36,654 nt of DNA, from the IMG/VR virus record IMGVR_UViG_2609459834_000011, positions 1-36,654 of that record; one strand, 5' to 3'. Under the pieces are notes generated by a model. The model was not told the origin of the DNA. It saw only the letters and a list, made by a program, of their open reading frames with translations, and did no database searches. A program made the position numbers and the translations under genes. Below, in pieces: positions 1 through 15,884 of the stretch; within the stretch, counting starts at the first letter, position 1; the number at the start of each line of letters is the position of its first letter. Source of the stretch: a virus. Lineage: Duplodnaviria; Heunggongvirae; Uroviricota; Caudoviricetes.

Positions 1-1194
1 ATGATCACCGACACAAAGCTCAGGAAGGCGCTCGGCAAGAAAAGAGATGATATCGAGATTATTTCTGATTCGCACGGGCTCAACGCCAGAATCAGCCAGG
101 CCGGAAAAATATCATTTTTCTATCGGTATCGCTGGGCCGGTAAAGCGGTAAAACTCAATGTTGGTGATTATCCTGCAATGAGTATCACCCAGGCAAGAGA
201 GCGTCGCCAACAATTCAGAAACTGGTTAACTGAGGGACTGGATCCGCGAGAGCAGGTGAAGCTGGATAAGCAGACCCGACAGGAAGCGATGTCCGTTGCC
301 GAAGCGTTCAATTACTGGATTGAAAGGCACTGTATCGCTAACGGGCTAGTTAAAGTCGATTACTATCGCCAGGTGTTTGAGAAACATATCGCCGAACCGA
401 TGAAGAATGTCAAAGTCGATAACACAGCGAAAATGCACTGGATCAACGTCTTCGATTCTATAGAAAGCAGGGTGATGGCTCATTACATGCTTTCGCTGTG
501 CAAACGGGCGTTTAGGTTCTGCGTTAACAGAAGTGTGATCGCCTCAAACCCACTCGAGGGATTACTGCCATCTGATGTCGGGCAAAAGCCTAAAAAGAGA
601 ACTCGCAGGATGGACGATGACGATCTGCGCAAAATCTATCAGTGGTTGAAAAGCCATATGTCGATAGAGTCCGTTTTCCTGGTGAAATTTATTATGCTTA
701 CCGGATGCCGTACGGCTGAGATTCGACTTAGTGAGAGATCATGGTTTCGATTGGATGATAATGAGTGGGTCGTGCCTGCGGGCAGTTATAAAACTCGGGT
801 ACATATTAGAAGGGGACTCTCAGACGCCGCCGTTAACCTGGTCAGAAATCACCTCAAGAAAATAAACACCAATCACCTGGTGACTTCACAACGTAAAATT
901 GATGGCGGGATCAAAGATTCGCCCGTTCATTCACCTGTGGCATCCAATTACGCCCGTTCTATTTGGAATGGAACAGGTATGGCAGAGTGGTCGCTTCATG
1001 ATATGAGGCGGACGATAGCCACAAATCTCTCTGAGTTAGGTTGCCCGCCGCACGTAATTGAAAAGCTGCTCGGGCATCAGATGGTGGGGGTTATGGCGCA
1101 TTACAACCTTCATGACTATATCGATGATCAGAAACACTGGCTCCGCGTTTGGCAGAGCCATCTTGAAGAGATCATCGGAGAGCCCTTCAGTTAA
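1..1194 (+). CDS. int: Tyrosine recombinase / phage integrase (P4-like family)
   Basis: 397 aa ORF; N-terminal arm-binding-like region ([11 protein letters not shown]...YRYRWAGK) and C-terminal catalytic region ending ...[18 protein letters not shown] typical of tyrosine integrases; sits at the edge of the phage module. Confidence 0.88.
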
Positions 1195-2395: not shown

Positions 2396-3153
2396 TCAGC
2401 CTCCGTCTCTGCGACATTGACAGGTTCGGCGTTGTCGACAGCAAGACTCATGTCATACATGCGTCGTTTCTCAACTGCGCCGATCACCTGTTTCTCTTCG
2501 GCGCTCAGCGCCACCCAGAACTCCTGATACTTAACGGTTCCAAGGCGCGCGGCGGACTCACCTTTTGCGATCAGTTCCGGGCGGCGGCTATCTGATTCAT
2601 GGCCCGCATGAACCTCTGCCGTTGTTCCTTCAATTACTCGCTCTGCCTCGTCCTGGTCGAAGATGCCAGCGAAACCAAAGGCCAGACGCGCGCACTGGAT
2701 CAGCGTCTTGTGGCGAAGCATGCGGGTAGGGTGGGACTGCCATGGCTGAGTGTTGCGTTTGCACTCTCCCATGTACTCGGTGACGATGGTCGGGTGCTTA
2801 CGGTCTTTGCGGTAAATCTTGCAGGTACACGCGCCTTCCTCCTTGTCGTAAGAGAATTCCATGCCGTCAAACTGAGGATGCTCGTTGATAATGCGAGCCC
2901 ATCCATCAACGCCGACGACCGGGACAATCCCGCCTTTATCTGGGAATGCGTAAATCTCTTTGGTCCATGGGTTCAGGCCGTACTGGTTGGCGACGATCAA
3001 CAGGGCTGTAAACTGCTCGTCCGTGACGTTGCCACCTTTGAACGCTGTATTCTTCAGCGTATTCATCAGGTCTGTACCGGCATCCATGCCGAGGCGTGCG
3101 GCCAGTTTCCCGGCCATGGTGGAAAGTGCAGTACTCATTGTTAAATCCCTCAA
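2392..3153 (-). CDS. recT: RecT-family single-strand annealing protein
   Basis: 253 aa; RecT-like sequence and classical RecT plus YqaJ-exonuclease gene pairing. Confidence 0.85.
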   Translation of the reverse strand: MRDLTMSTALSTMAGKLAARLGMDAGTDLMNTLKNTAFKGGNVTDEQFTALLIVANQYGLNPWTKEIYAFPDKGGIVPVVGVDGWARIINEHPQFDGMEFSYDKEEGACTCKIYRKDRKHPTIVTEYMGECKRNTQPWQSHPTRMLRHKTLIQCARLAFGFAGIFDQDEAERVIEGTTAEVHAGHESDSRRPELIAKGESAARLGTVKYQEFWVALSAEEKQVIGAVEKRRMYDMSLAVDNAEPVNVAETEAE

Positions 3154-5373: not shown

Positions 5374-6291
5374 CTACCAGTTCGGTAGCTCACGCAAAGA
5401 ATACTTAGGCTTTCCATTACCTACCTGAGTGCAGAGGAATTTTGCAATAACTTTTTCTCCGCGGTGATCGTTGATAATGTCTGGATTGTCTATGTAATTA
5501 CTGATTTTCGCTACAAAAATTGATTTAGATTCATCATGCTCCATAATAAACTCGCATTGACGTTTATGAGGAAGGGCTCCCAAGAAGCTAACTTCTAATA
5601 ACTGCAAATCTTCTTTAACACTATCTTTACTTAGCTTGAGGACCGCTCTTTCAATATCATTGATATTGTTTGCAACAAGCGCTTGGTTGTTATGCCTTAA
5701 AGTAAAAGTTGCTTTGTTATCAAATAGTATTTGTATAAATCCACGTATTTTATCTAAAGCTCGGTCATCCAAATCACTAATCGCCTCAGCTAGACCATCA
5801 TCGTCTCCCCTTATACTCATTTGCAGGATAGATTGAGTCTGGTTCAGAGCTTTTTGAACAGAAGATTCCTCATCAAAGTTAAGCGGGGCATCTGGCCTAA
5901 ATTCCTCAAGTGTAAATCCAAAAGAACCTTTGGCTGTTCCAGTAATCATAAGCAAATTATTTTCAAGATTTGGAATTTTACCTTTGGCCGGTAATTTCCC
6001 TGAAAATGAAGATGCAACATGAGAAACCGCATCATTAAAGGCGTTAACTATTTTGGTTCCGAAATTTGCAGCTATGCCATATGTACCAAGTACAGGGGCT
6101 CCTCTAAATGTTAAAGTGGCTTTAACTGGCGGATGCTCATCGATAACAATATGAGAAATCTCATCATTTAGCTCATGGAGCCTGCTTTCAAGGCTCATTT
6201 TGCCAATAATGTCATCATCAGTAGTGGTTTCTAAAAGAGACAGGATTGAGTCCCGCTCACTTAGAACGAACAAGTAATCGTCGCGATTCAT
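5374..6291 (-). CDS. Hypothetical protein, second gene of immunity-region accessory cassette (no recognised domain)
   Basis: 305 aa, visibly AT-rich codon usage; start ATG overlaps stop of upstream gene (ATGA) and is preceded by strong SD GAAGGAGGTG; no hydrophobic segments or motifs I recognise. Confidence 0.7.
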   Translation of the reverse strand: MNRDDYLFVLSERDSILSLLETTTDDDIIGKMSLESRLHELNDEISHIVIDEHPPVKATLTFRGAPVLGTYGIAANFGTKIVNAFNDAVSHVASSFSGKLPAKGKIPNLENNLLMITGTAKGSFGFTLEEFRPDAPLNFDEESSVQKALNQTQSILQMSIRGDDDGLAEAISDLDDRALDKIRGFIQILFDNKATFTLRHNNQALVANNINDIERAVLKLSKDSVKEDLQLLEVSFLGALPHKRQCEFIMEHDESKSIFVAKISNYIDNPDIINDHRGEKVIAKFLCTQVGNGKPKYSLRELPNW

Positions 6292-6875
6292 TGCTCACCT
6301 CCTTCTGATAGCATTGTTTCTAAAATGGTTAATGCCTGTTGATCCAGTGTAATATCTAGAGGAATCTGCAAGAATCCCTTCCATGTAAGATCCCTTCTAT
6401 GAGACCACATACTGTACCAATATACAGTCCTTTCTACAAGCTGCTCCTTAGAAACGCCCAGTGACTGGAAGTAAGAATCAACTCTAAACTCTTGCTTTCT
6501 CCACTTACCCATATGTGGCACAAACAGATTCGGGTTACGCATAACGACATCTTGCTGCGTTTCGTTAAACGCCAAATTAAAAAAAGTCACAACATCAATG
6601 TCATTTGGCGGACGTTTTTCAATGAGTTCAACATCTTCTATGAAACTACCATCGATCCATTGAAAACCATCCGTTAACCCAGTTTTATTAATTTCTTTAC
6701 GAAATTTGATGAAACCGAGTAAGATCTCGATCCTTTGTGGGCTTGTAGCGTACCGCTCTACAAATTTTAATATATCTGTCTTATATGGGGAGCGATAGGC
6801 GCTGGTTGGATGCTCCATATCCATTGGTGGGATTACACCAATTTCATTCCAGTTAGGAATTTCCTGAATCACCAT
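6288..6875 (-). CDS. Hypothetical protein with nucleotidyltransferase-like motif, first gene of immunity-region accessory cassette
   Basis: 195 aa, AT-rich; contains WIDGSFIEDVELIEKRPPNDIDVVTFF, matching the G[GS]-x(10-15)-DxD pattern of Pol-beta-superfamily minimal nucleotidyltransferases; same strand as and downstream of cI. Confidence 0.7.
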   Translation of the reverse strand: MVIQEIPNWNEIGVIPPMDMEHPTSAYRSPYKTDILKFVERYATSPQRIEILLGFIKFRKEINKTGLTDGFQWIDGSFIEDVELIEKRPPNDIDVVTFFNLAFNETQQDVVMRNPNLFVPHMGKWRKQEFRVDSYFQSLGVSKEQLVERTVYWYSMWSHRRDLTWKGFLQIPLDITLDQQALTILETMLSEGGEQ

Positions 6876-13252: not shown

Positions 13253-13608
13253 AAATCTACGACATCACACCAATCGGCAAGCCTCGCATGACCCGCGCCG
13301 ACAAATGGAAAACACGGCCTGCGGTCATGCGTTACCGCGCATTCTGCGATGAAGCACGTCTGCGCAAAATCAATCTCCCTGAGTCCGGCGCGCATATCAC
13401 CTTCGTTATGCCAATGCCCCCGAGTTGGAGCAAAAAGAAGCGGGAACAGCTCAACGGCAAGCCGCACCAGTCAAAACCAGACTGCGACAACATGCTTAAA
13501 GCACTGATGGATGCCCTGTTTGATGATGATTCCAGTGTCTGGGATTGTCGCATTACAAAGCTATGGGGCGAGAAAGGCCAGATCATCATTCGGGAGAACG
13601 GACAATGA
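13249..13608 (+). CDS. rusA: RusA-like Holliday junction resolvase
   Basis: 119 aa; KPDCDNMLKALMDALFDDD matches the RusA catalytic DxDNxxKAxxDAL...D signature (E. coli RusA [22 protein letters not shown], as recalled). Confidence 0.65.
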   Translation: MKIYDITPIGKPRMTRADKWKTRPAVMRYRAFCDEARLRKINLPESGAHITFVMPMPPSWSKKKREQLNGKPHQSKPDCDNMLKALMDALFDDDSSVWDCRITKLWGEKGQIIIRENGQ

Positions 13609-14288
13609 CACGCAACGACATTAACAATTACCAGAAAGCGTCTGTTGAGCGTACCAACCCGCAAAACGCCTGGGTGACGCTAGCAGCAGCTCCACGCAGA
13701 TCTTACCTGGGGAAATACCGCCGACTTACACCATCGCAAAGCCGTTGGGTTCGTTCGTTGCTGAACCACTGGGGCGGCATGTACGGTGGCAGTGGAACAG
13801 AGCACCTTTCTGGTGGCGGTGGTATGTGGTCAATGATATTGACCGGCTGGACTGGCGAGCAGCAGGAGCGGATCGCTACCGTGCTGTCTGGTCTGCGTAA
13901 AATTGGCTATACCGGCGATGCGTTGTTTGAGCAGGCGAAAGCCATCATCTGGCCGAAGAAATCACTTTCTGACCTGATCGGCAACGCCGGGGATCAAGAG
14001 GAAGCTGCATTCATGGAGGCTATCATCCTGAAGTCCTTCAAGCCGGGGAATCCCGTGTATGAGATAGGGAAGGACTATTACACCTGGAGGAAAACCATTA
14101 ATGACATGGCACGGTGGATGCAATATTACTACGCGCCGTTTCTGACCGAAAAGCAATGTATTGACCGCGTGCGCTGGTGTATTGAGTTGTTTAATTCTGC
14201 TGTCTTCTTCACGTTAAAAGATGAATTTGGCTTCGAAAATGCAAAAACTTGCGAAAAAGACTTGAAAACGAGTTTTGAAACTGCATAA
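13605..14288 (+). CDS. Putative late-gene antiterminator (Q-like), assigned mainly by position
   Basis: 227 aa from ATG at 13605 (ATGA overlap with the RusA-like gene); last gene of the nin-like operon, directly upstream of a terminator, tRNA and the lysis cassette. No lambda-Q zinc-finger motif seen. Confidence 0.45.
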   Translation: MTRNDINNYQKASVERTNPQNAWVTLAAAPRRSYLGKYRRLTPSQSRWVRSLLNHWGGMYGGSGTEHLSGGGGMWSMILTGWTGEQQERIATVLSGLRKIGYTGDALFEQAKAIIWPKKSLSDLIGNAGDQEEAAFMEAIILKSFKPGNPVYEIGKDYYTWRKTINDMARWMQYYYAPFLTEKQCIDRVRWCIELFNSAVFFTLKDEFGFENAKTCEKDLKTSFETA

Positions 14289-14372
14289 TTCAGATATGCT
14301 CGGACGTCAAAGGCGAAAGAGCTTACCCACCAGCGGAGATGCCTTGCGCGGAGCGGTGTGAACCACATTTAA

Positions 14373-14399
14373 GCCCTTGCAGAAATGCAGGGGCTTTTT
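14373..14399 (+). terminator. Intrinsic terminator (tR'-like) downstream of the Q-like gene
   Basis: GCCCTTGCA-GAAA-TGCAGGGGC (9-bp stem with one G-U pair, GNRA loop) followed by TTTTT. Confidence 0.6.
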
Positions 14400-14406
14400 G
14401 CATTCA

Positions 14407-14481
14407 GGGTCAGAAGCACAGAGGTTGTGCGATCGGCTGTTAACCGATTGGTCGAAGGTTCGAATCCTTCCTGTCCCGCCA
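14407..14481 (+). tRNA. tRNA-like gene, anticodon GTT (Asn)
   Basis: 75 nt folding as a cloverleaf: acceptor GGGTCAG/CTGTCCC (one U-U mismatch at 4:69), D-arm GCAC/GTGC, anticodon stem ATCGG/CCGAT with loop CTGTTAA, T-arm GAAGG-TTCGAAT-CCTTC, discriminator G, encoded CCA. Confidence 0.7.
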
Positions 14482-14531
14482 AATACCTACCAGGACCATA
14501 AGAGCAAAAGCTCAACGCACTACCCTCTATT

Positions 14532-14555
14532 GCCCACCGCGCCGTGGGCTTTTTT
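14532..14555 (+). terminator. Intrinsic terminator upstream of the lysis cassette
   Basis: GCCCAC-CGCGCC-GTGGGC followed by TTTTTT. Confidence 0.6.
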
Positions 14556-14663
14556 ATTGCAGGCCGCAGATATCATTTTCAGATGCCATGTAGCAATCAG
14601 AGTCTGACGGCCTTTCCCCTACAAACACACACAGCACCATCCGGAAAATCGGAGGTGAGGCCT

Positions 14664-14987
14664 ATGAAAATGCCATACAAACAAGATTTCATCGCTGCGC
14701 TACTTGCCGCCAAGGAGCAGGGTATTGGTGCAATGCTGGCTTTTATCATGGCGTATCTGCGTGGTCGCTATAACGGCGGCGCGGTAACAAAAACGCTAAT
14801 TGATGCGCTGATGTGCGCGATGATTGCCTGGTTCGTTCGTGACCTTCTGGACTTTATCGGCCTGAGCAGCAACCTCGCCTACATAGCCAGCGTCTTTATT
14901 GGATACATCGGCACCGATTCGATCGGCAATCTGATTAAAAAACTTGCAGCAAAAAAGGCGGGAGTTGACGATGCAAACCAGTCCTGA
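14664..14987 (+). CDS. S: Class I holin, lambda S-like, with dual-start MKM motif
   Basis: 107 aa; [39 protein letters not shown]...[25 protein letters not shown] is near-identical in pattern to lambda S as recalled; SD GGAGGTGAGG upstream. Confidence 0.9.
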
Positions 14988-15420
14988 CGGAATTGCTCTG
15001 ATAAAAAAATTTGAAGGTTGTCGACTGACTGCTTACCCCGACCCCGGAACGGGAGATGCGCCGTGGACCATCGGCTATGGCTGGACCCATCCGGTTGACG
15101 GAAAGCCAGTAAAGCGCGGTATGACTATCGACCAGCAAACCGCTGACAGGCTTCTGAAAACAGGGCTTGTTGGTTATGAGAATGACGTGCTGAAAGTTGT
15201 CAGGGTGAAGCTGACACAAGGCCAGTTCGACGCACTGGTGTCGTTCGCTTACAACGTTGGGTCGCGTGCTCTTTCCACATCTACACTGCTGAAAAAGCTG
15301 AATGCTGGCGATATAAAAGGCGCGGCAGATGAATTTCTGCGCTGGAATAAATCAGGCGGAAAGGTGATGCCGGGGCTCACGAATCGCCGCAAGGCAGAGC
15401 GAGCTCTGTTCCTGTCATGA
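14971..15420 (+). CDS. R: Endolysin (phage lysozyme, GH24-like)
   Basis: 149 aa from ATG at 14971 (SD GGAG); [22 protein letters not shown]...TIGYGWT lysozyme motif; start overlaps the holin 3' end. Confidence 0.9.
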
Positions 15421-15884
15421 TTAGCGCACTGGTTAAGCGTTACTGGCTGCAGTTGCTGGTGCTGGCGTTAATCGGCGCACTGGCTTTCTTCGTGAACCAC
15501 TACCGCGACAACGCCATCACTTACAGAGACCAGCGCGATAAGGCCACTGAGAAACTCCTCCTGGCGACCGCCACCATTAAAGACATGCAGACCCGCCAGC
15601 GTGATGTCGCTGCACTGGATGCCAAATACACCGGAGAACTGGCTGATGCGAAAGAAACCATTGAGCGTCTGCATAGCGATGTCATTGCTGGCCGTAAGCG
15701 CCTGCAAGTCGCCGCCACCTGTGCAAAGTCAACGACCGGAGCCAGCAGCATGGGCGATGGAGAAAGCCCAAGACTTACAGCAGATGCTGAACTCAATTAT
15801 TACCGTCTCCGAAGTGGAATCGACAAGATAACCGCGCAGGTTAACTACCTGCAGGAATACATCAGGACGCAATGCCTGAAATGA
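15417..15884 (+). CDS. Rz: Rz-like inner-membrane spanin
   Basis: 155 aa; N-terminal TM helix then coiled-coil periplasmic domain; ATGA overlap with endolysin; contains the embedded Rz1 frame. Confidence 0.8.
15646..15831 (+). CDS. Rz1: Rz1-like outer-membrane lipoprotein spanin, embedded in the +1 frame of Rz
   Basis: 61 aa from ATG 15646: [20 protein letters not shown] (signal peptide plus lipobox Cys) followed by a Pro-rich mature region. Confidence 0.75.

Follow-up and report, generated by a model that had tools for sequence, protein, structure and literature searches.

The tRNA-Asn gene and its late leader

The DNA analysed here, a stretch of 36,654 nucleotides (IMG/VR record IMGVR_UViG_2609459834_000011, positions 1 to 36,654; hereafter, the window), belongs to a lambdoid temperate phage resembling Citrobacter phage Omnitron, and its late leader contains a gene for tRNA-Asn with the anticodon GUU. 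The gene lies between a Q-like gene and the holin gene, is co-oriented with the former upstream and with the lysis cassette downstream, and is flanked by two terminators; an earlier note, made from the sequence alone, had described this layout, and it was found as claimed. The features of the region are as follows.

14407-14481, + strand: tRNA-Asn(GUU) gene (ARAGORN, Rfam family RF00005, covariation, annotated homologues)
14371-14399, + strand: terminator 1, tR'-like (11-bp hairpin at 14371-14396, U-run to 14399)
14482-14531, + strand: 3' trailer or spacer (leader alignment)
14532-14555, + strand: terminator 2 (6-bp hairpin GCCCAC-CGCGCC-GTGGGC at 14532-14549, then TTTTTT)
14262-14289, + strand: PR'-like sigma-70 promoter (-35 TTGAAA, 16-nt spacer, -10 CATAAT)
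13605-14288, + strand: Q-like late antiterminator gene (PHROG 753 match, position after rusA)
14664-14987, + strand: holin gene, lambda S family (PF05106, E = 8.5e-30)
14944-15884, + strand: remainder of the lysis cassette, endolysin (PF00959) and Rz spanin (PF03245), both from Pfam

The tRNA-Asn gene is recognisable from its structure, its conservation, the covariation within its stems and its genomic position. The only tRNA that ARAGORN predicted anywhere in the window was tRNA-Asn(gtt), at 14407-14481 (+). The RF00005 model was matched over its full length (positions 1 to 71 of 71), scoring 62.7 bits where the gathering threshold is 29 (E = 1.9e-11); this was the only Rfam match above threshold across the 36.6 kb. 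ARAGORN, which the earlier note had named as a check, and a covariance model, the kind of model whose failure to call a tRNA would have told against the note, thus both recognise the gene, and every element of the 75-nt cloverleaf that it had listed (anticodon GTT, T-loop TTCGAAT, discriminator G and encoded CCA) was recovered from the sequence, ARAGORN and RF00005.

Read from the sequence, the acceptor stem is GGGUCAG/CUGUCCC, and it is not fully paired: six of the seven pairs form, the exception being U4.U69 (window positions 14410 and 14475), which is the single U-U mismatch that had been noticed earlier. The D stem is GCAC/GUGC with the D loop AGAGGUU, the anticodon stem is AUCGG/CCGAU with the loop CUGUUAA (U33 and A37 present, anticodon GTT at 14439-14441), the variable loop is UGGUC, and the T arm is GAAGG-UUCGAAU-CCUUC. 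The discriminator G73 occupies 14478, and the encoded CCA follows at 14479-14481. The tertiary nucleotides A14, G18G19, U33, T54-Psi55-C56 and A58 are all present; positions 8-9 are A8-A9, the expected U8 being replaced by A8 at window position 14414. The minimum free energy fold of the isolated 75 nt is the cloverleaf (-26.2 kcal/mol), but the energy is not significantly lower than that of shuffled sequences (z = -1.7), and statistical weight therefore falls on the covariance-model score and on the comparative data. The identity set recognised by asparaginyl-tRNA synthetase (AsnRS) in E. coli consists of G34, U35 and U36 together with the discriminator G73, and all of these are present in the window tRNA. 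From these properties we infer that the tRNA would be expressed, processed and charged and may benefit the phage; judging from sequence and layout, the gene is probably functional, expressed late and dependent on the Q-like protein.

Terminator 1 has a predicted stability of -18.9 kcal/mol (z = -4.2), a value reached by none of 200 shuffled sequences, and terminator 2 one of -11.2 kcal/mol (z = -2.6). The number of terminator-like matches in the region, three against 1.9 expected by shuffling, is not above expectation; what speaks for the terminators is how stable they are and that the hairpins, with differing stems, are conserved in relatives. The spacing from terminator 1 to position 1 of the tRNA is 10 nt, which leaves no space for a promoter of the tRNA's own, and a promoter scan of 13500-15200 found no separate promoter between the two. 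Over that interval the PR'-like promoter was the sole promoter-like site. However, the count of such sites is not above shuffle expectation, and the PR' assignment therefore rests on position: the promoter overlaps the end of the Q-like gene, with an inferred transcription start at about 14296, and lies ~80 nt upstream of terminator 1. Directly after the CCA, the trailer is AU-rich (AAAUA), a property typical of the 3' flanks of E. coli tRNAs; the trailer as a whole (14482-14531) has no significant fold and no Rfam match, and a permissive Rfam scan of 14200-14700 for a small RNA in the leader returned only sub-threshold noise (isrJ, 17.6 bits against 37).

The Q-like reading frame is open from a TTG at 13545, but its likely start is the ATG at 13605, which overlaps the rusA stop and yields a protein of 227 amino acids; the homologue in EC2001 is annotated at the same length, under the name "hypothetical protein" given by the Prokaryotic Genome Annotation Pipeline (PGAP). 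The protein matches PHROG 753, "anti-termination protein Q-like", with E = 1.1e-57, and its gene directly follows that for RusA (PF05866), which is the canonical Q position. No sequence match was found in Pfam, NCBIfam or the PDB. BLASTP against the Q21-type protein of phage HK639 gave only a marginal match of 18 residues; separately, the N-terminus of that HK639 protein matches PHROG 753 weakly (E = 5e-9). From these sequence matches, the PHROG 753 protein may represent a fourth Q family that has no curated model and is possibly a distant relative of Q21. The holin gene is the first late protein gene downstream of tRNA-Asn, and the layout as a whole is consistent with Q-dependent control of the tRNA. 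The N-terminus of the holin, Met-Lys-Met (14664-14672), is the dual-start holin/antiholin motif also present in lambda S.

Conservation and the terminator-tRNA cassette in related phages

The gene itself was already known: annotated copies exist in public records at 96-99% identity, and given these near-identical tRNA-Asn annotations in GenBank and RefSeq, the gene call adds nothing new. Neither is the setting novel, as tRNAs behind PR' and tR' in lambdoid late leaders are textbook knowledge for Shiga toxin (Stx) phages and have been known since their genomes were. As such, the feature is an ordinary example of a familiar type. Fifteen deposited phages of Klebsiella, Enterobacter, Escherichia and Citrobacter share the tRNA, at 91.7-99.7% identity over the matched stretch, and seven of the 15 records annotate it as tRNA-Asn. 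Among complete E. coli genomes, 79 of 5426 carry a window-type tRNA, each as one chromosomal copy; all of the E. coli copies listed are annotated as tRNA-Asn by PGAP, and the prophages that harbor them sit at many different chromosomal positions. At least 120 viral contigs in IMG/VR, mostly of 30-50 kb, have a window-type tRNA, and a scan of one genome per species yielded 19 matching stretches, 18 from Enterobacterales and one from a Phocaeicola metagenome-assembled genome. Outside the lambdoid phages, the nearest relatives are genes in the tRNA arrays of virulent phages, namely the T5-like Aeromonas phage AhSzw-1 (83%) and Salmonella phage pSal-SNUABM-01 (79%). Two copies of the tRNA-Asn lineage were also observed on the 116-kb Rouxiella badensis plasmid pSP2 (CP114059), which is about the size of a T5-like phage and may be a phage-plasmid or a misassigned phage genome.

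The earlier note had suggested that the acceptor mismatch might mark a diverged or partly degenerate tRNA, and the second part of that suggestion was not borne out. The 131 copies compared collapse to 27 distinct sequences, and over the 24 distinct sequences of 75 nt, 93% of the cells at the 21 stem pairs are paired, compared with 40-51% when the 3' partners are slid. Double changes were found at four pairs (5-68, 27-43, 50-64 and 51-63): C5-G68 became G5.U68, A27-U43 became U27-A43, and in the T stem an A-U pair became C-G and another became U-A. None of 500 shuffles reached the covariation score, although this control is uncorrected for relatedness; the search pattern fixed many alignment columns, though none of those that covary. 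Across the ~130 copies, U4 is invariant and position 69 is mostly U, with minorities of G, A or C, and the U4.U69 combination recurs in a divergent lambdoid lineage of tRNA-Asn, that of phage HK446. Because the mismatch is conserved, it is likely to be tolerated or selected rather than a sign of decay. A8 is kept throughout the window lineage and in its virulent-phage relatives, but is absent from the HK446 type; G73 is retained in nearly all copies.

A fragment of a host tRNA at a recombination junction, which the earlier note had envisaged as grounds for abandoning its prediction, is not what was found. Of the 5426 E. coli genomes, 5425 have the host tRNA-Asn, in a median of four copies, and the window tRNA is only 54% identical to it; moreover, the window gene is full length, includes the CCA and lies 14 kb from the integrase gene (window positions 1-1194). 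The low identity to the host, together with the nearest outside relatives being in virulent phages, shows that the gene belongs to a phage tRNA lineage and is no captured host fragment.

Citrobacter phage Omnitron is the nearest deposited phage, at 99.7% identity over 14290-14660, and it matches window positions 8000-32000 at 96% over three quarters of that length. The lone difference between the two in the 371 nt of the leader falls in the D stem, where G10-C25 is paired in the window and Omnitron has G10.A25. Klebsiella phages GZ7, vB_Kpn_Chronis, RCIP0034/0098 and ST11-VIM1phi8.1 have the same gene in the same position with the same terminator-tRNA junction, as do E. coli prophages such as those of EC2001 and FDAARGOS_433, with 91-99% identity. 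The window differs from the Klebsiella and E. coli copies in having A27-U43 where they have U27-A43 and A16 in the D loop where they have C; many of these relatives add tRNAs for Arg (UCU), Thr (UGU) and Gly (UCC), whereas the window has Asn alone, and the upstream Q family also differs.

In each of the five annotated loci inspected in E. coli prophages and Klebsiella phages, and in HK639, the order is Q-type gene, tRNA, lysis cassette, and the same layout is found in the eight related loci inspected, as read from annotation except in the case of Omnitron, whose record is unannotated. In HK639, the tRNA-Asn(GUU) gene (positions 2521-2595 of locus L001) is missing from the GenBank annotation, and the Asn gene is followed by a tRNA-Gly(UCC)-like sequence that received no ARAGORN call. 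Upstream, the relatives encode Q proteins of PF03589 (lambda type), PF06530 (Q21 type, PDB 6P18/6JNX), PF06323 or PHROG 753, and since the Q families differ, the tRNA-Asn moves as a module independently of the antiterminator. In the leader alignment, phages with different Q types have unrelated sequences ahead of terminator 1; what is conserved is the base of the hairpin, the U-run and ~10 nt leading to the tRNA (AAGCCC...GGGCTTTTTCATTTCA, then the initial GGG), whereas the upper stem varies by compensatory change. A strict hairpin test (-12 kcal/mol or better, plus a T-run) was passed by 99 of the 123 copies with enough flanking sequence, and these represent 46 different hairpin sequences.

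When ARAGORN was applied to the flanks, no tRNA other than Asn came first after the hairpin in any context of temperate-phage size, save for one locus, which has an extra tRNA-Gly 574 nt upstream. The members that follow are variable: 48 loci, the window included, have nothing downstream of Asn, while ~38 have Arg(UCU), ~39 Thr(UGU), ~13 Gly(UCC), and occasionally Phe or Met is present. Relatives close the cassette with a different GC hairpin and then the same TTTTTTATT(T/G)CAGG at the place of terminator 2, and the trailer motif ACC..AGGACCATAA recurs after the last tRNA of their longer arrays. The window is thus the minimal form of a common cassette, consisting of a terminator, tRNA-Asn, a short trailer and a second terminator. 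The trailer motif was further observed as ACC..(A/T)GGGACCAT(T/A)A, or elsewhere as CCAGGGTAT, after the last tRNA whatever the number of tRNAs (loci L002, L003 and L006-L008).

The HK446 lineage provides the closest parallel. Its Asn gene also stands directly after a lambda-type tR' and has the same acceptor stem, GGGUCAG/CUGUCCC with U4.U69, as well as G73 and CCA, but it differs from the window in its D arm, anticodon stem and T arm. In 106 of 121 copies the next gene is Thr(UGU), which the window cassette lacks. The HK446 record itself (NC_019714) carries late-leader genes for Asn(GUU) and Thr(UGU) at 35097-35252 that are missing from its GenBank annotation. A more distant parallel is Stx phage 933W, which, in the 1999 description by Plunkett and colleagues, is said to carry ileZ-argN-argO between Q/PR'-tR' and stx. 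Like the window, 933W reportedly has its tRNAs after PR' and a terminator, upstream of and co-oriented with the lysis genes, an arrangement that makes their expression depend on antitermination by Q; its tRNAs, however, are for rare Ile and Arg codons rather than the common Asn codons, the sequences are unrelated, and it lacks the constant first Asn gene fused to a terminator that distinguishes the window family. A comparative paper on Stx pR' regions makes no mention of tRNAs.

One copy was found to be chimeric. In E. coli O19:H7 730V1 (positions 3001-3075 of locus L008), the 5' two thirds are tRNA-Asn, while the 3' strand of the T stem, the acceptor strand and the discriminator A are those of an array tRNA-Met found on another contig; PGAP annotates only a 67-nt tRNA-Asn. 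The copy is defective, and its make-up suggests a deletion by recombination through the shared T arm, which would be one route by which arrays shrink.

The remainder of the window is that of a lambdoid temperate phage. Besides the integrase gene (1-1194), it has genes for a YqaJ/RecT recombination pair, a CI-type repressor, an O-like initiator and a DnaC-like loader; after them come those for a DUF1367 protein, a NinI-type phosphatase, a YbcO-like protein, RusA and the protein in the Q position (227-247 amino acids, depending on the start chosen), and then tRNA-Asn. The lysis genes then come in the order lambda-S-type holin, lysozyme and Rz, and lead into terminase and myovirus-type structural genes. 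Adjoining the CI repressor gene is a two-gene unit at 5374-6875 on the - strand, which encodes a 305-amino acid protein with no Pfam or PADLOC match and a 195-amino acid DUF6932 protein with a match (E = 2.7e-11) to PDC-M63A, a candidate defence family in PADLOC; the unit is possibly a prophage-borne defence moron.

Possible roles of the late-leader tRNA

By analogy with the established lambda and 933W paradigm, RNA polymerase would start constitutively at the PR'-like promoter (14262-14289) and, in the prophage state, would mostly stop at terminator 1 (14371-14399). After induction, the Q-like protein (13605-14288) would convert polymerase to a terminator-resistant form, which would pass both terminators and the tRNA between them and continue into the genes for holin, endolysin, Rz and structural proteins. 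RNase P would then cut the transcript at G1, RNase E and exonucleases would trim it to the encoded CCA, and host AsnRS would charge the product by way of the GUU anticodon and G73, so that the phage tRNA would add to, or replace, the host tRNA-Asn pool during late protein synthesis. One may speculate that, with two terminators in series, a small leak would yield some tRNA in lysogens while the holin would still be shielded. The likeliest benefit would be that Asn decoding is kept up when nucleases of the Toprim/OLD family (P2 Old, PARIS AriB and their relatives) destroy host tRNA-Asn.

PARIS AriB cuts E. coli tRNA-Asn(GUU) between positions 40 and 41 in the sequence U36AAUC/C41, and a change at U39 abolishes its cleavage of tRNA-Lys (PMC12409363). 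Old of P2, the classic anti-lambda exclusion protein, amputates anticodon arms that have a paired CNG at positions 28-30 and 40-42; its preferred substrate is Thr(UGU), but Asn(GUU) is cut as well, and phage Thr tRNAs resist it by changes in the motif and loss of the 27-43 pair (PMC12445682). According to a 2026 preprint, Old depletes Thr(UGU), Gly(UCC), fMet, Val and Pro tRNAs, and the Thr(UGU) tRNA of HK446 provides strong counter-defence against it (bioRxiv 10.64898/2026.07.10.737580). That tRNA is the second gene of the unannotated Asn-Thr late-leader cassette described above. Experimental data on resistance or rescue come from this Thr tRNA of HK446 and from the T5 tRNAs.

The tRNA-Asn of the host (asnT/U/V/W) shares with that of the window the loop CUGUUAA, G73, CCA and the core of the T loop, but it has U8, a fully paired acceptor stem and a different anticodon stem, GCGGA/UCCGU. 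The host arm GCGGA/CUGUUAA/UCCGU carries both the AriB and the Old motifs. In contrast, the window arm AUCGG/CUGUUAA/CCGAU reads UAACCG (U39C, C41G) and has UCG and CGA in the CNG registers, and because the window tRNA is without either published motif in register, a cleavage-resistant replacement is plausible. C39 is common to the Asn tRNAs of the window and HK446, where the host has U39, and the pairs 28-42, 29-41 and 30-40 are common to the window tRNA and HK446 Thr (GUCGC/GCGAA). Among the tRNAs that sister arrays have in addition, Thr(UGU), Gly(UCC) and Met(CAU) are targets of Old or AriB. In a sub-family of the window lineage, U27.U43 shortens the stem; the 27-43 pair of the window is intact. 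Phage T5 likewise encodes a tRNA-Asn(GUU) with the anticodon of the AriB-targeted host tRNA and substitutions at 39-41 (UAAGUU in T5 and UAACCG in the window, against UAAUCC in the host), but it belongs to another sequence lineage, in a virulent phage with ~24 tRNA genes that have their own promoters. Furthermore, the T5 Asn variant matters only jointly with the T5 Lys and Thr tRNAs, the three together neutralising PARIS (PMC12409363).

A counter-defence benefit of the tRNA-Asn is therefore suggested by sequence comparison, although our confidence in it falls somewhat short of even. In its fuller form the proposal is that tRNA-Asn forms the constant head of a cassette that serves counter-defence under Q control. 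Such a cassette would comprise tRNAs that resist cleavage, in varying combination (Asn GUU alone or together with Thr UGU, Gly UCC, Met CAU or Arg UCU), would be fused to the late terminator and would pass between lambdoid phages of enterobacteria whatever their Q type. It would replace host tRNAs amputated by Toprim/OLD-family tRNases of rival P2-like prophages or P4-like satellites; the altered anticodon stem would serve evasion, as might U4.U69 and A8, and the Asn-only forms would point to an uncharacterised nuclease whose main target is tRNA-Asn. As a whole, we offer this scheme tentatively and hold it to be somewhat less likely than not.

Several observations weigh against it. AriB and Old are directed mainly at Lys(UUU) and Thr(UGU), with Asn in second place, and the window cassette, having Asn alone, should not by itself rescue infection from either nuclease. 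A CGG/CCG pair persists in the window stem, shifted by 1 bp towards the loop, and because the tRNA differs from that of the host by 46% throughout, the motifs could have been lost incidentally. In lambdoid phages, the Thr(UGU) partner met most often keeps CNG in register. An identification of that partner with the HK446 tRNA was considered and rejected; the partner occurs in Enterobacter and Hafnia phages.

A supply effect is nearly as likely as counter-defence, and the two are not exclusive. Here, a functional tRNA under Q control would raise tRNA-Asn for structural proteins rich in Asn (AAC) during the late burst, independently of any defence; taken alone, we hold this to be somewhat less likely than not. 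A comparison of codon usage, which the earlier note had put forward, showed the window late genes to be the richer in both respects: Asn makes up 4.59% of their residues against 3.32% in a sample of 28 E. coli core genes (1.4-fold, Fisher p = 7e-5), AAC occurs 30.2 times per 1000 codons against 17.8 in the same 28 genes (1.7-fold, Fisher p = 1e-6), and several structural genes reach 5-7% Asn. A single tRNA suffices for such an effect, and the partner tRNAs of relatives (Arg UCU, Thr UGU and Gly UCC) read codons that are rare in the host, as is classically seen. AAC and AAT, however, are common codons, both of which are read by the products of the host's median of four tRNA-Asn genes. HK97, which has no tRNA gene, has 5.0% Asn in its late genes and HK446, a close structural relative that carries the Asn-Thr cassette, has 5.06%; this equality argues against codon demand as the discriminating factor. 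In addition, the Q, lysis and structural modules that accompany the cassette differ from phage to phage, and it is thus not co-adapted to one gene set. As a sole driver, codon demand is accordingly weakened.

It is improbable that the sequence is a tRNA-like element with no role in decoding, i.e., one that is charged poorly or not at all on account of A8 and U4.U69 and acts as an RNase P/RNase E site or as leader punctuation, separating the PR' leader from the lysis mRNA or setting the stability of the latter. A8 and the acceptor mismatch, two non-canonical features that are both conserved, are unusual for a working tRNA, and in this they speak for such an element and against a functional gene; the spacing of ~10 nt to the terminator is fixed in most copies, and the hybrid 3' acceptor strand in E. 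coli 730V1 implies that defective versions persist. However, in columns left free by the search, the anticodon loop, G73, CCA and the T loop are invariant or nearly so, and the stems change in a compensatory manner. The AsnRS identity set is complete, whereas a pure processing signal needs neither GUU nor G73, and members of the same lineage stand among the many tRNA genes of virulent-phage arrays, a setting that makes little sense for an element used solely in processing.

The tRNA is most unlikely to be a functionless remnant of a host tRNA or att site left by imprecise excision or recombination, or, in a variant of that idea, a compensation for a host tRNA disrupted by integration. tRNA-Asn genes are indeed frequent targets of integration. 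As regards the variant, tRNA-dependent lysogeny is known in other temperate phages (PMC10865867). Both forms are nevertheless largely refuted by the 54% identity to the host, the full length with CCA, the 14 kb that separate the gene from the integrase, the many E. coli chromosomal positions of the carrier prophages, the host's retention of four copies, and the location of the tRNA behind a terminator and not behind a promoter active in lysogens. A further idea, that the tRNA serves as an integration site for satellites, was dropped because the paper on helper-embedded satellites involves no phage tRNA.

Significance for enterobacterial temperate phages

In the literature searched, we found no description of tRNA-Asn as a constant, terminator-fused first member across four Q families, of the odd acceptor stem common to two lineages, or of the overlap between array members and the target lists of Old and PARIS. 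The constancy, the shared stem and the overlap in targets are comparative observations to which a hypothesis is attached, and they are not a demonstrated new system. In the survey, one tRNA-Asn lineage, together with a second that has the same odd acceptor stem, was nearly always first after the late terminator in hundreds of enterobacterial temperate phages with four antiterminator families, and the partners in the cassette overlap the targets of PARIS and P2 Old that were published in 2024-2026. The survey also flags the reference genomes of HK639 and HK446 as having unannotated tRNA genes. If the counter-defence proposal is true, temperate phages, and not just large virulent ones, would carry minimal kits of spare tRNAs timed to late expression, and the Asn-only kits would provide a handle for finding nucleases that target tRNA-Asn.

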